This document shows, one piece after another, positions 2,751-24,345 of a DNA stretch of 64,000 bases. Made by a program: the position numbers and the translations under genes. Position 1 is the first letter of the stretch; every line of letters starts with the position of its first letter. Under the pieces are notes generated by a model. It did no database searches. It was not told where the DNA came from and saw nothing but the letters and a program-made list of their open reading frames with translations. This DNA is from Squalus acanthias (taxonomy: Eukaryota): positions 96,164,001 to 96,228,000 of the forward strand of contig CM059431.1 in the NCBI GenBank assembly GCA_030390025.1, given 5' to 3'.

Positions 2751-4392
2751 GCCATTGGACCAAGACCTTGCTCTGTCAAGCCCATGTGTTAGCTGGTGTG
2801 CAACGGCCACCCCACGTTAAAAGAATTCACACACAGGCATCTTGCACCCTTTAAAATTAAGTTCAGGACCTGGAACGTCAGGACCCTCATGGACAACCCC
2901 AACAGTGACAGAACAGAACGCCGTACTGCTATCGTTGCCCGGGAGCTCAGACGTTTCGACATAGACATTGCTGCCCTAAGCGAGACTCGGCGGGCAGGGG
3001 AAGGCCAGCTCAAGGAGCAAGGCGGTGGCTACACCTTCTTCTGGAAAGGCAAAACTGAAGAAAAACGCCGCCTCCATGGGGTAGGCTTCACCATAAAAAA
3101 TGAGCTAGTTGGACATCTCAGAGGCTCCCTTTGCAGAATAAACGAATGCCTCATGACTCTTCGGCTCACCCAAGCCCGGAACCAGTGCGCTAAATTCATC
3201 AGTGCATACGCCCCAACACTGGAATCCACAGACAAGACCAAAGAGGAATTCTACTCCAGCCTCGAACAATCCCTGTCCTGAGTCCCAACGGGCGACAAGC
3301 TGATCCTCCTTGGCGACTTTAACGCCAGAGTTGGAAAGGACACAGATCTCTGGGGAGATGTGATCGGCAGAGAGGGGGTAGGGAAAGCCAACTCCAACGG
3401 TACCCTCCTCCTGACGAAATGCTTAGAACATGGTCTTGTCATAACCAACACCTTATTCCATCAGAGAGACAAGTACAAGGCTTCATGGCGACACCCTCGC
3501 TCCAAGCACTGGCATCTGCTGGACTACATAATCGTCCGAGCGAGCGACCGCAAGGACGTCCACATCGCCCGCGCCATGACAGGAGCTGACGACTGCTGGA
3601 CAGACCACCGTCTAATCCGCTCTGTCATCTCCATCAACGTAGCCCCAAAACAGTAGCGGCAGAAGAAGCAATGCCACAGTAAAATCAACGCTGGAGCACT
3701 CAAAGACCCTGCTAAGAATGCCCTATTCAGCCTGTGCCTCACAACCAACCTGGCAATTCCCAGTGATTCTGAGACACAGAGGGTTGGATTTTGAATCTGG
3801 GGTCGGGTTGGTGTCGGGAATCACACATTCTGGCTTGTGAACCCGCCTCCAACGAGATGTGGCCAACCCACTGTATTTTCCCTTGATTGACCTTGTTGAG
3901 CCCGCCCGGTGGGCTCAGCAGGCCAATTAAGGGCCACCCGGCAACAGGTGACGTCACAGATTGACATTTCATCTGTCAAGAGCTTTTGACAGATGAAATA
4001 TCAGCGTTTGACAGCTCTGTGAAGCTGTCAAACACTCACAATATGATTTCTAACTTCAGTCCTTCCTCTCAGGCTGAGTTAGAAATCATTCCAGCACAGA
4101 AAACAGAAGGCTGCAGTTTTTGACAGAACCACGGCTTTCCTGCTTTCTGTGCCGGTGAGATTTCTAACTCCCGAGAACTGAAGGGCTGACACCTGCAGGA
4201 GGAAGTTAAGGTAAGTAAAACTTTTTCCAACACTTAGCACTTACCTTACACACTTACCTCTGCACACATGCACCCATCACTCACCTGCCCATCAGACATA
4301 TCGACCCCTCCAACCCCTGCAGACCCACGGCCCGCCCCGATAACTTGGCGTGGCTGCCACCTGTCGGGAAGCCCACACTTTTCTTTTTAAAA

Positions 4393-4554
4393 GTGAGAAG
4401 TCGCACAACACCAGGTTATAGTCCAACAGTTTTATTTGAAATCACAAGCTTTCGGAGCGGCTGCTCCTTCGTCAGGTGAAGTAAAGGAATACAAATCGAC
4501 AAAGCATATTTGTCCTTTTGTCCACCCCAGTCCAACACCGGCATCTCCGCATCA
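4393..4554. mobile_element. 162-bp non-coding retro-insertion (Penelope-terminus-like) carrying a hammerhead motif
   Basis: Exact 14-bp TSD ttttctttttaaaa (4379-4392 / 4555-4568); contains an HHR core on the minus strand. The Penelope assignment is inference. Confidence 0.8.
4442..4479 (-). ncRNA. Minimal type-I hammerhead ribozyme motif
   Basis: Minus strand reads UCAC-CUGACGA-A-GGAGC(AGCC)GCUCC-GAAA-GCUU-GUGA: intact core, 5-bp helix II, palindromic AGCU helix III, 4-bp helix I. Confidence 0.8.
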
Positions 4555-7149
4555 TTTTCTTTTTAAAATAGGGATTATGCAAAAAACTGCCTGTTACTAA
4601 TCCCTTCCTGCCTCGGGGAGTCGGGTTCCAGCACGTCGGGTACCCGCCGCCAGAGAAACTGGCATGGAGGCGGGTTGGGGTCGGGACCCCCGAATCTGCA
4701 ACTTTAACCCCCCCCCGCCTCCAAAGGGCATTGAAAATCCAGCCCAGAGTGTCCACAGCGCCTGGTCTGCACTCAAGGCCTCCATAATCAGCACCTGTGA
4801 AGAGACGCTCGGTCACTCGACCAGGAAACACCAAGACTGGTTCGACGAGAACGACCAGGAGATCCAGGAGCTAATAAGCTGCAAGCACAAGACATTCCTG
4901 ATCTGGAAACAGCAACAGAACTCGAGAGCAAGAAAGCAGCTCTACAGACACCTGAAGGCCGAGTTCCAACAAAAATCTCGTGACCTAAAGAATAGATGGT
5001 GGGTGGAGAAAGCGCAGGAGATCCAGCAGCTAGCCGACAACCACGACGTGCGTGGATACTTTAGAGCAGTCAAGACCACCTACGGCCCAAGGTCCTACCC
5101 CATTGCGGGCCAAGAACGGAGAGGTACTCATCAAGGACAGAGAGGCAGTTAGTGCCCGCTGGAAGGTGCACTTCGAAGATCTCCTTAACCGAGACTCTGT
5201 CTTCGATGTGAGTGCCCTCAACTCCATCCCGCAGCATGCTGCCCGCCACCACCTCCGCACAACCCCAGCCCGGCATGAGGTTGAAAAGAGCATCTGACAA
5301 CTGAAGAACAACAAGGCCTCAGGAGCAGATGGATTCCCTGCCGAGGTGCTAAAGCATGGTGGCGAAGCACTATTGGCGTGAATACATGAACTCATTGCTC
5401 TTATCTGGAAGGAGGAGAGCATGCCAGGTGATCTCAGAGATGCTGTAATCGTGACCATCTTCAAGAAAGGTGACAAGTCCAATTGCGGTAATTAAAGAGG
5501 AGTTCCCCTGCTGTCTGCCACAGAGAAAGTCATCGCAAGAATCCTCCTCAATCGCCTTCTCCCAGTGGTAGAAGAGCTCCTCCCATAGTCGCAATGCGGA
5601 TTCCGCCCACTAAGGGGCACAATGGACATGATCTTCACCGCGCGTCAATTACAAGAGAAATGCAGGGAACAGCACCAACCGTTGTACATGGCCTTCTTTG
5701 ACCTCACAAAGGCCTTCGACATTGTCAACCGTGAGGGATTATGAGTGTCCTCCTCAAATTCGGCTGCCTCAAAAGTTTGTCACCATCCTCTGCCTGCTTT
5801 ACGACAACATGCAAGCCGTGATCCTGACCAATGGATCCACCACAGACCCCATTCACGTATGGACCTTGGTCAAGCAAGGCTGTGTCATCGCAGCAATGCT
5901 CTTCTCGATCTTTCTTGCTGCAATGCTCCATCTCACCCTCAGTAAGCTGGAATGGAGCTAATCTACAGAACAAACGGGAAACTGTTCAACCTCCGTCGCC
6001 TGCAGTCCACATCCAAGGTCGTCCCATCCTCTGTCGTTGAATTACAGTACGCAGACGATGCTTGGGTCTGCGCACACTCGGAGGTCGAGCTCCAAACCAT
6101 CGTTAACAGCTTCACCGAAGCATATGAGTGCATGGGCCTTACACTAAACATCCGTAAAACAAAGGTCCTCTACCAACCTGCCCCCGCCACACAGTACTGC
6201 TCCCCGATTATCAAAATCCATGACGAGGCCTTGGACAAGGTGGACCACTTTCCATACCTTGGGAGCCTACTGTCGACAAGGGCAGACGTCGATGACAAAG
6301 TCCAACACTGCCTTCAGTGTGCCAGTTCAGCCTTCGGTCGCCTGAGGAAGAGAGTGTTTGAAGGCCAGGACCTCAAACCCAGCACCAAGCTCATGGTCTA
6401 CAGAGCAGTAGTGATACCCGCCCTCCTGTATGCTTCAGAGGCATGGATCATGTACAGCAGGCACCTCAAATCACTGGAGAGGTACCACCAACGCTGCCTC
6501 CGCAAGAGCCTGCAAATCCATTGGCAGGATAGGCGCACCAACGTCAGTGTTCTCGGCAGGCCAACATCTCCAGCATCAAAGCTTTGACCACGCTCGATCA
6601 GCTCCGATGGACGGGCCACATTGTCCGCATGCCCAATACAAGACTCCCAAAGCAAGCACTCTACTCAGAGCTCCAACACGGCAAGAGAGCCAGGTGGGCA
6701 GAGGAAACGTTTCAAGGACACCCTCAAAGCCTCCTTGAAAAAGAGCAACATCCCCACCGACACCTGGGAATCCCTGGCCCAAGACCACACAAAGTGGAGG
6801 AGAAGCATCTGGGAAGGAGCCGAACACCTTGAGTCTCTTCACCGGGAGCAAGCGGAAGCCAAGTGCAAGCAGCGGAAGGAGCGCACGTCAACCCAAGAAC
6901 CCCACCCACCCGCCCCTTCAACCATCATCTGCCCCACCTGTGACAGAGATTGTAGGTCCCGCATTGGACTCATCAGTCACCTGAGAACTCATTTTTAATG
7001 TGGGAGCAAGTCATCCTCGGTTCCGAGGGACTGCCTAAGAAGAAGATAAAGCTCTGGTTAGACCCCATTTAGAATACTGCAATCAGGTCCTATCCCACCA
7101 GATTAAGGCCCACCTGCAATTCCTTCTCTACCCACTCCCGCATCATTAC

Positions 7150-21382: not shown

Positions 21383-24345
21383 AAACAACAACAGAAAACG
21401 CTGGAAAAACTCAGCAGGCCAGGCAACATCCGTGGAGAGAGAAACAGAGTTAACGTTTCAGGTCGAAACCCTTCGTCAGAACTGAGAAAAAAGCAAGAAA
21501 TGAAACAGATAAAAAAGCAAGGGGGAGGCTGGGGGGAGGAATAAAAGAACAAAAGGGGTGGTCTATGGTAAGTAGAGACATTAAGAGATGCTCAAGGCAA
21601 GACGAGATGGTAATAGGACAGGTTAAGAAACAAAAGGTGGCTAGAAGTATGAAGTGTGAAATGCTGGCAGAATGAAAGACAGCTGCCGTGGGGGGAGAGA
21701 GAGAAAAATAAGGGAAAAGGCACAAACCAAAAGGGTGGATAAAATGTATATATGTGGTAGGGGCCGAGGTTATGATCTGAAATCGTTGAACTCGATATTG
21801 AGTCCGGAAGGCTGTAAAGTGCCTAATCGGAAGATGAGGTGCTGTTCCTCGAGCTTACGCTGAGCTTCCGTGGAACAATGCACGAGGCCGAGGACGGTGA
21901 GGTCTAAGTGGGCGTGGAGAGGTGAATTAAAATGACAAGCAACCGGAAGCTCGGGGTCACCCTTACGGACTGAACGGAGGTGTTCTGCAAAGCGGTCACC
22001 CAATCTGCGTTTGGTCTCCCCAATGTAGAGGAGACCACATCGTGAGCAGCGAATACAGTATACTAGATTGCAAGAAGTACAAGTAAATCGCTGTTTCACC
22101 TGGAAGGGGTGATTGGGCCCTGGAGAGTGGGAAGGGGGGATGTATAAGGGCAGGTGTTGCATCTCCTGCGCTTGCACGGGAAGGTGCCGGGCGAGGGGGA
22201 AGGGGTGCTGGGGGTGATAGAGGAGTGGACTAGGGTGTCTCGGAGGGAGCGGTCCCTACGGAATGCTGAAAGGGGAGGTGAGAGGAAGATACGTTTGGTG
22301 GTGGGATCACGTTGGAGGTGGCGGAAATGGCGGAGGATGATCCATTGAATGTGGAAGCTGGTGGGGTGAAAGGTGAGGACAAGGGGAACTCTATCGTGGT
22401 TCTGGGAGGGAGGGGCCGGGGTGAGGGCAGAAGTGCGGGAGATAGAACGGACACGGTCGAGGGCCGTGTCGACCACGGTGGAGGGGAATCCTCAGTTGAG
22501 GAAAAAGGAAGACATGTCGGCAGCACTGGTATGGAAGGTGGCATCGTCGGAGCAGATGCGGCAGAGACGGAGAAACTGGGAGAAGGGAATAGAGTCCTTA
22601 CAGGAGGCGGGGTGGGAGGAAGTGTAGTCCAGGTAGCTGCGGGAGTCAGTGGGCTTGTAGTGAATGTTGGTCAATAACCTATCCCCAGAGATGGAGACGG
22701 AGAAGTCGAGGAAGGGAAGGGAAGAGTCGGAGATGGACCATGTGAAGGTGAGGGAAGGGTGGAAATTGGAGGCAAAGTGAATGAAATTGTCTAGTTCAGG
22801 GCAAGAGCAGGAAACGGCACTGATACAGTCGTCAATGTACCGGAAAAAAGAGGTGAGGGAGGGGACCCGAGTAGGACTGGAACAAAGAGTGTTCCACATA
22901 TCCCACGAAAAGGCAGGCATTGCTAGGACCCATGCGGGTACCCATAGCAACACCTTTGATTTGGAGGAAATGAGTGGAGTCAAAGGAGAAGTTGTTCAAT
23001 GTGAGAACAAGTTCAGCCAGGCGGAGGAGGGTGGTGGTGGATGGGGACTGGTTGAGCCTCTGTTCAAGGAAGAAGCGGAGCGCCCTCAGGCCACACTGGT
23101 GGGGGATGGAGGTGTAGAGGGATTGTACGTCCATGGTGAAAAGGAGGCGGTTGGGGCCAGGAAACTGGAAACTGTTAAAGTGGCGGAGGGCGTCAGAGGA
23201 ATCGCGGATGTAGGTGGGAAGAGACTGGAGAAGGGGAGAAAAAATAGAATCGAGATAGGAAGAGATAAGTTCCGTGGGGCAAGAACAGGCTGAAACGATG
23301 GGTCTACCAGGGCAGTCCTGTTTGTGGATCTTGGGAAGGAGGTAGAAGCGGGCTGTGCGGGGTTGGGGATCTATGAGGTTGGCGGCTATGGAGGGAAGAT
23401 CTCCAGAGGAGATGAGGTCAGTGACAGTCTTGGAAACGGTGGCTTGATATTCGGTAGTGGGGTCATGGTCCAGGTGGAGGTAGGAGGAGGTGTCGGAGAG
23501 TTGGCGTTCAACTTCCGCTAGGTAGAGGTTGGTTCGCCAAACAACAACAGCACCACCCTTGTCAGCAGGTTTAATGACAATGTTGGGGTTGGATCGGAGA
23601 GAATGGAGTGCTGCAAGTTCAGAGGGAGGTAGGTTGGAGTGAGTGAGGGGAGCAGAGAAATTGAGATGGCCGATGTCACGGCGGCAGTTAGCAATGAAAA
23701 GATCTAGAGAGGGTAACAGGCCAGAGGGAGGGGTCCAGGTGGAACGAGAATTCTGAAAGCGGGAGAAAGGGTCAGCCGTGCGGGGGGGAAGACTCCTGGC
23801 CAAAGAAGTGGGCACGGAGACGAAGGCGGCGGAAAAAGAGCTCAGCATCGTGCCGAGCTCGAAATTCATTGAGGTGGGGGCGTAAGGGGATGAAGCTCAG
23901 GCCTTTGCTGAGGACTGATCGTTCAGGGTCAGAGAGGGGAAGGTCAGAGGGGATAGTGAAAACGCGGCAGGGGGTGATATTGGGAGAAGGGGGGTCAGAG
24001 GAAAGTGAAGGGGAAGAAGGTTCCGGAGGGGAGTTAGTGTCCAAGAGTTGTTGAAGCTTGCGATCCTTGACATCGGAAAGGAAGAAGAAAAGTTTGTTGC
24101 TGAAGCGTCGGATGAGTCTAAGGATGAAATGAAACTGTGGACCCGGATAGCTTTGAGATAGAGTGCGCCGGTGCTGCTGAAAAGTGAGGTCGAGAGTGTT
24201 CATGTGGCGCCGCATGGCGTTGAGCGTGGATCTCAAGATGTGGCGAGAGCAGTAGTTCGAGGAACGATGAATATCTTGGAGATATTTGTAATCCTGGGTG
24301 GATCCGAAACACGAAGGGTGAAAGTTTAGTTGGAATCCACGTGGG
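21383..24345 (-). mobile_element. Penelope-like retroelement, ~3 kb, frameshifted RT + GIY-YIG
   Basis: IKPADKGGAVV, RPIVS, DVQSLYTSIP, GVAMGT, RYIDD and GIY-YIG (LVYCI..YIGET) motifs; 7-bp TSD ataattg (21376-21382 / 24346-24352). Confidence 0.95.
21448..21483 (-). ncRNA. Minimal type-I hammerhead ribozyme motif in the Penelope terminus
   Basis: AGUU-CUGACGA-A-GGGU(UUCG)ACCU-GAAA-CGUU-AACU: intact core, palindromic ACGU helix III, helix I AGUU/AACU. Confidence 0.8.

Follow-up and report, generated by a model that had tools for sequence, protein, structure and literature searches.

A 162-bp hammerhead-bearing insert of Squalus acanthias as a probable two-armed, 5′-truncated insertion of a Penelope-like element

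In the genome of the shark Squalus acanthias (assembly GCA_030390025.1), a 162-bp sequence carrying a hammerhead ribozyme motif interrupts an older repeat at positions 4393–4554 of the stretch of contig CM059431.1 that we analyzed (64,000 nucleotides, positions 96,164,001 to 96,228,000 of the forward strand; hereafter, the window, to which coordinates refer). We conclude that this insert is very probably an extremely 5′-truncated, dead-on-arrival insertion of a Penelope-like element (PLE) that is young and autonomous, and that it consists of two arms whose 3′ ends point outward.

The insert is non-coding and is enclosed by exact 14-bp duplicates, TTTTCTTTTTAAAA, at 4379–4392 (left copy) and 4555–4568 (right copy) of the window. 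The boundary is ambiguous by one base, as the T at 4555 possibly corresponds to the T of the element's ATG. At the 3′ end of the left copy, the sequence AAAA adjoins the arm that begins at the internal U-tract of the element. The flanks of the insert belong to a high-copy repeat (5986 first-look candidates in the genome search), and in all nine paralogous copies retrieved by BLAST the left- and right-flank alignments overlapped by exactly 14 bp. All nine paralogues were uninterrupted and contained the 14-mer a single time; the six that were aligned read ...CCCACACTTTTCTTTTTAAAATAGGGATTATGC... continuously, without the insert. The empty paralogous sites show that the insertion is real, as is its target-site duplication (TSD), and that the arrangement did not arise by chance. 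In contigs of public runs (4 of 20 runs), a joint that skips 176 letters and has 14 shared letters corresponds to the empty form, which in these data is inseparable from the 98–99%-identical paralogous copies. Among the pieces listed from these contigs (4 of 20 runs), none spans the stretch of the insert, and none of the 20 runs contained more than 0.61 of the sampled words.

The host repeat at the insertion point lies between the endonuclease part (2793–3656, Pfam Exo_endo_phos) and the reverse transcriptase (RT) part (5946–6587, RVT_1) of a plus-strand LINE copy. This host LINE extends over approximately 2793–7000 on the plus strand. When the stretches 3900–4392 and 4555–4750 were compared with paralogues, the sequence to the left of the insertion showed 97–99% identity to more than 40 paralogues, and the sequence to the right showed only 72–85%, with indels. 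Approximately 20 extra bases (ACTACCTGTTAACAGGCAGTTAATTG...) are present in the paralogues and absent from the window copy.

The 162 bp are composed of two arms of a PLE and a short filler. Arm 1 (4393–4509, minus strand) is the final 117 nt of the 3′ UTR/pLTR of the element without the tail; it ends with ...GCGACTTCTCAC at 4393, and its 3′ end faces the left TSD copy. Arm 2 (4515–4554, plus strand) is the 40-nt PLE "tail" (CTTTTGTCC...CCGCATCA), with its 3′ end facing the right TSD copy. The 5-nt filler TTGTC (4510–4514, no strand assigned) lies between the arms; because it repeats the TTGTC of the neighboring tail, microhomology or slippage is suggested as its origin. A genome search with the insert gave 849 candidates, of which 40 were scored, and the 30 best-scoring loci, which are a non-random sample, were retrieved. 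Bases 1–117 of the insert were 100% identical at 37 of the 40 scored places, and bases 123–162 were 100% identical to 15 copies of the tail that lay in the opposite orientation directly before base 1. The sequence past base 117 continued into a common PLE body in 27 of the 30 retrieved loci. Two alternative 3′ termini were observed in the source family: one with the tail (16 of 30 loci), in which the inverted 40-mer precedes base 1 at the 3′ end of the element, and one without it (14 of 30), in which the element ends at ...CTTCTCAC and is followed by unrelated A/T-rich flank (AAAA in 7 of the 14).

The element from which the arms derive was found in the same genome. In the loci L032 and L031, an RT/GIY-YIG open reading frame (ORF) lies upstream of the arm-1 sequence, and the L032 ORF matched Pfam RVT_1 (E 1.3e-8). 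Pfam GIY-YIG gave no direct match to the source ORF at E≤1e-3; the ORF's C-terminal part shared 40% identity (E 4e-16) with the GIY-YIG domain of the other PLE of the window, which is itself Pfam GIY-YIG-positive. Locus L031 contains two same-strand copies of the 3′ end (pLTRs) 3.1 kb apart, with the ORF between them, and its order is pLTR end (...CTTCTCAC), 40-mer tail and ATG of the ORF (MATIDTTNCRLK...), with no gap before the ATG. An RT and C-terminal GIY-YIG ORF, a pLTR or inverted copy, a tail at one end and a variable TSD in an AT-rich target, all of which identify a PLE fragment, were found together. Open frames of 920–921 aa, with no stops in the match, were present at at least 9 of 86 scored places, and on account of these frames the source family is young and probably retains autonomous members. 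The genome-wide search with the source RT/EN protein gave 70,288 first-look candidates. The data suggest that the source PLE population is very large and possibly still active. When the contigs of runs X6 and X9 were compared with window positions 4250–4700, those of a run labelled as a second organism matched the 3′ end and the tail of the PLE with a likeness of at least 97% and a high word depth. It follows that at least one other species carries the source PLE family or one very close to it.

Arm 1 carries a minimal type-I hammerhead on the minus strand at 4442–4479, which reads, from 4479 to 4442, UCAC-CUGACGA-A-GGAGC-AGCC-GCUCC-GAAA-GC-UU-GUGA. Helix I has 4 bp (4479–4476 with 4445–4442) and helix II has 5 bp (4467–4463 with 4458–4454), closed by G10.1-C11.1; the two conserved boxes are CUGACGA (4475–4469) and GAAA (4453–4450). 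The GC at positions 15.2/16.2 (4449–4448) is palindromic, within A-GC-U and without a helix III loop, and it is followed by UU (4447–4446); cleavage is predicted after the triplet CUU, where 4446 meets 4445. A single unpaired A (4468) lies between A9 and helix II. This nucleotide was absent from the initial description of the motif, and an unpaired nucleotide at this place is conserved in PLE minimal hammerheads (PMC4209133). A descriptor of this architecture gave two matches in the window (minus strand, 4475 and 21479) versus none in 50 shuffles, and the stricter pattern CTGAYGAAGG..CCGAAASSTT gave 37,995 matches in the genome (approximately 10 per Mb) versus one in the reversed control. The sequence-only reading had described a Penelope-type minimal type-I core with a palindromic AGCU on the minus strand, and each of these parts could be read. 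It had also named the Rfam hammerhead models as a check. With Rfam 15, neither a hammerhead nor any other family was detected in the whole window at the gathering score, nor in 4300–4650 at E≤10; in our reading, the Rfam models probably expect a helix III, which minimal motifs do not have.

Covariation of the helices across genomic copies, a property by which that reading proposed to judge the motif, was seen. We compared 18 motif instances, from 14 loci chosen for helix II diversity among the first 100 matches and from the two motifs of the window. Helix I occurred as UCAC/GUGA, UUAC/GUAA or AGUU/AACU (at least 3 bp in 17 of 18 instances), helix II as GGAGC/GCUCC, GGAGUU/AACUCC or GGGUC/GACCC, or with G-U wobbles, and helix III as GC or CG, so that helices I, II and III covary. 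Judged by its sequence, the motif is a genuine PLE minimal hammerhead whose catalysis is predicted, and the hammerhead is selectively maintained in the source family. The expected helices I and II were formed when a 62-nt monomer was folded. In the lowest-energy dimer cofold, helix II rather than the AGCU helix III was exchanged between the two molecules, and the folding therefore gives an active dimer no support. Published minimal hammerheads showed no activity as monomers and little as dimers (PMC4209133), and the hammerhead of the anole element PAc was cleaved only in the presence of protein (PMC11167929). In the same anole PLE, the hammerhead was protein-assisted and dispensable for insertion in vitro (PMC11167929). 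Because the hammerhead at 4442–4479 is a single copy without the partner copy needed for a dimeric helix III, it is most likely an inert passenger. It lies on the strand opposite to that of the host LINE, and the insert most likely has no function at this locus. In the library searched, we found no paper on PLE hammerheads of sharks; a review on Penelope hammerheads uses the word "shark" for the shape of the motif only.

The second hammerhead of the window (21442–21483, minus strand, core CTGACGA from 21479) reads AGUU-CUGACGA-A-GGGUU-UC-GACCU-GAAA-CG-UU-AACU. A degraded minus-strand PLE with broken frames, in which a GIY-YIG part (21770–22255) and an RT part (22832–23896) were recognized, occupies approximately 21.4–24.4 kb, and the hammerhead is located 3′ of it. 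The source family of the 162-bp insert shares 40% (EN) and 41% (RT) amino acid identity with this PLE, and the helices of the two hammerheads differ. On these comparisons the insert belongs to a PLE family distinct from that at 21–24 kb, as had been proposed from the letters alone.

Considering that the insert is non-coding, flanked by a TSD and endowed with a hammerhead, it might represent a distinct non-autonomous mini-retroelement, retrozyme-like or a mini-PLE, moved as a 162-nt unit by a PLE. This was the principal proposal of the sequence-only reading, and animal non-LTR retrozymes are argued to derive from PLE pLTRs, with monomeric derivatives, in the available part of a recent preprint (Li et al. 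2026, 10.64898/2026.07.22.740005). We regard it as very unlikely. The 35-base internal junction occurs a single time in the 3.7-Gb genome when up to three mismatches are allowed (one forward, none reverse, none in the control), and Tandem Repeats Finder returned 0 rows for 3800–5200, that is, no tandem arrangement. Only 3 of the 40 scored places cover both halves of the insert, and the other two, L003 and L002, have different junctions, with breaks at other points and microhomologies of 4 nt and 2 nt, respectively. L003 is an independent 154-bp insertion with its own 11–12-bp TSD and a junction 9 nt from that of the window, and in L002 the tail runs on into the ORF. In addition, both arms are 100% identical to an autonomous element, and the hammerhead, which has neither helix III nor loop-loop contacts, is of the minimal PLE type. 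The origin of retrozymes from PLE pLTRs, as put forward in the available part of the preprint, changes nothing for a junction that exists in a single copy. Of the earlier proposal, then, the non-coding 162-bp insert with its exact 14-bp TSD and the retroelement origin were borne out, and the alternative of a collapsed Penelope terminus, offered in the same place, came close to the truth. The autonomous partner that had been envisaged was recovered as an RT/GIY-YIG PLE with 100%-identical termini. A propagating mini-retroelement or retrozyme did not survive the comparison, as the junction was unique and not in tandem, and similar small products had other junctions and their own TSDs.

The architecture of the insert is shared by other copies of the family. 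Seven two-armed insertions were hand-picked among the best-scoring loci, and are thus a non-random set: L003 (154 bp), the window insert (162 bp), L020 (323 bp), L014 (995 bp), L034 (1937 bp), L033 (2449 bp) and L032 (3709 bp). All seven contain inverted arms, a TSD of 8–14 bp and a tail at one end only. The 323-bp insertion L020 (G000:C6:16930465-16930787) carries two hammerheads, one per strand, and its TSD (GTGTTTTATGCT) has 12 bp; four extra bases, AGAA, are found between the left TSD copy and the arm. The first 100 of the 37,995 motif matches, which are listed on G000:C1:0.23-9.87 Mb, contained 13 pairs within 200 bp; in our reading of these 100 matches, all 13 pairs are arranged minus-then-plus, with 3′ ends outward, and none plus-then-minus. 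No same-strand pairs within 1 kb were present among the same first 100 matches. Head-to-head pairs 36–183 bp apart hold 26 of these 100 matches. In the public-run contigs, several joints from 4414–4480 to 4515–4537 possibly represent further junctions between arm and tail, although their sides of 20–26 letters are not long enough for them to be counted.

These longer relatives raise the question of whether the window insert was once larger. A longer two-armed or full-length PLE could have been cut to 162 bp at a later time by internal deletion or by recombination between inverted arms; the end product would look identical, two-armed insertions of 995–3709 bp with matching ends exist, and a 5-nt filler with local microhomology fits end-joining. 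We nevertheless consider such a history improbable. With dozens of copies, both arms share 100% identity, which leaves little time since insertion, short two-armed products are common (the 13 close inverted pairs among the first 100 matches and the 154- and 323-bp insertions), and strong 5′ truncation is known for PLEs from the available part of Craig et al. 2021 (PMC8557442).

An element mobilized at the DNA level, such as a MITE or a solo terminal repeat, would likewise be small and flanked by a TSD. The ends of the insert (GTGAGAAG... and ...CCGCATCA), however, do not form a pair of inverted repeats, each half is a terminus of a PLE that encodes an RT, and the TSD length varies from 8 to 14 bp among copies, as would suit target-primed retrotransposition but not the action of a transposase. 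The MITE and solo-LTR readings were rejected for the non-inverted ends, the PLE termini and the variable TSD. A chance resemblance is countered by the absence of the motif from the 50 shuffles and by its 37,995 genome matches against a single control match, and we hold either possibility to be extremely remote.

An early-aborted PLE insertion can be understood from what is known of PLE integration. In the available part of Craig et al. 2021 (PMC8557442), PLE insertions are described as highly 5′-truncated, often with an adjacent inverted 5′-truncated copy and with a 30–40-bp tail often at one end only. The purified PLE protein of an anole cleaves and extends both DNA strands and prefers AT-rich DNA (Frangieh et al. 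2024, PMC11167929), and reverse transcription of this element begins at two adjacent internal sites, the tail being the stretch between them (PMC11167929). From the structure of the window insert, we infer the following order of events, with priming from both strands. The PLE endonuclease would make staggered cuts 14 bp apart in the AT-rich target, and both 3′-OH ends would then prime reverse transcription of the PLE RNA at the two alternative start sites of the element. Priming by the bottom strand would take place at the distal site, located at the ORF's ATG or beside it, and only the tail would be copied; the top strand (...AAAA-3′) would prime at the proximal site, UUUU just after ...CUUCUCAC, and 117 nt would be copied. 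The two short cDNAs would be joined via the 5-nt filler or microhomology, and gap repair would then yield the TSD. If both cDNAs are aborted at an early stage, the model of Frangieh et al. predicts a product such as this insert.

The AAAA of the left TSD copy is able to pair with the UUUU of the proximal site. For the anole element, the start site was reported to share no homology with the DNA that is cleaved (Frangieh et al. 2024, PMC11167929), and either the A/U microhomology seen here is coincidental or the source family differs in this respect. We put at about even the chance that the 162-, 154- and 323-bp products are in vivo records of single events primed from both cut strands, and that they map both RT start sites to the base. 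If so, the start sites would be the UUUU that follows ...CUCAC and the ORF's ATG, in a probably active shark PLE, and the proximal start may exploit microhomology between the A-tract of the target and the U-tract of the element. The insertions would then back the in vitro model of Frangieh et al. 2024 with a record from in vivo events and would refine it.

As a whole, the insert is an ordinary by-product of PLE insertion and not a new mini-element, and descriptions from PLEs already exist for its ribozyme motif, its tail, its inverted arm and its TSD. Truncated PLE copies number tens of thousands in this genome, and this one has little importance alone. Its value is that of a clean minimal example, in which both termini, the junction and the intact target duplication are contained within 190 bp, and such mini-insertions could be used to test in vivo the model of two start sites and two-strand priming that came from in vitro work. 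For genome annotation, the example shows that fragments of this kind are to be masked as PLE sequence, without a new SINE-like or retrozyme family being named for them.

In L1 "twin priming", an inverted upstream segment is joined to a direct 3′ segment and the whole is flanked by a TSD. The window insert resembles such products in that the inverted segment is the stretch of RNA immediately 5′ of the direct one and that a TSD flanks the whole. It differs from them in the enzyme, which is a PLE RT/GIY-YIG protein, in having no poly(A), and in a second start site that is fixed, in contrast to the arbitrary position in L1.

Retrozymes, as described in the available part of Cervera & de la Pena 2020 (PMC7229834), contain canonical type-I hammerheads in tandem units of 150–450 bp. 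According to the portions available of this paper and of Li et al. 2026 (10.64898/2026.07.22.740005), metazoan non-LTR retrozymes share with the insert a small non-coding sequence, a type-I hammerhead and kinship with PLE pLTRs, but the insert is non-tandem, has a single-copy junction and carries one motif that is minimal and not canonical. The tandem units, the canonical type-I motif and the recurrence by which retrozymes are recognized in those portions are thus all absent from the insert.

The hammerhead agrees closely with the minimal motifs described from PLEs of metazoans (Cervera & de la Pena 2014, PMC4209133), with which it shares the CUGANGA and GAAA boxes, the unpaired nucleotide between A9 and G10.1, the G10.1-C11.1 pair, the palindromic 15.2/16.2 without a helix III loop and the 4-bp helix I. 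Those motifs, too, number in the thousands in a genome; most stand alone in truncated PLEs, and dual motifs lie on opposite strands (PMC4209133). Helix II has 7–8 bp in the Schistosoma families (PMC4209133) and 5 bp here, and Xenopus contains approximately 9,000 minimal hammerheads (PMC4209133), fewer than the 37,995 descriptor matches of the shark genome.

Among the PLEs themselves, the anole element PAc has its RT start sites 111–118 nt inside the ORF (PMC11167929), whereas the tail of the shark element is located immediately upstream of the ATG, where it ends. The window copy stands at the small extreme of the canonical PLEs, since one of its arms is the tail alone. In other respects, the source element and its insertions correspond to the canonical EN+ PLEs, Penelope, Poseidon and Neptune, as these are described in PMC11167929 and in the available part of PMC8557442: they share the ORF with an RT plus a GIY-YIG at the C-terminus, the direct pLTRs, the adjacent inverted 5′-truncated copy, the 40-nt tail at one end, the AT-rich targets, the variable TSDs and the pLTR hammerhead.
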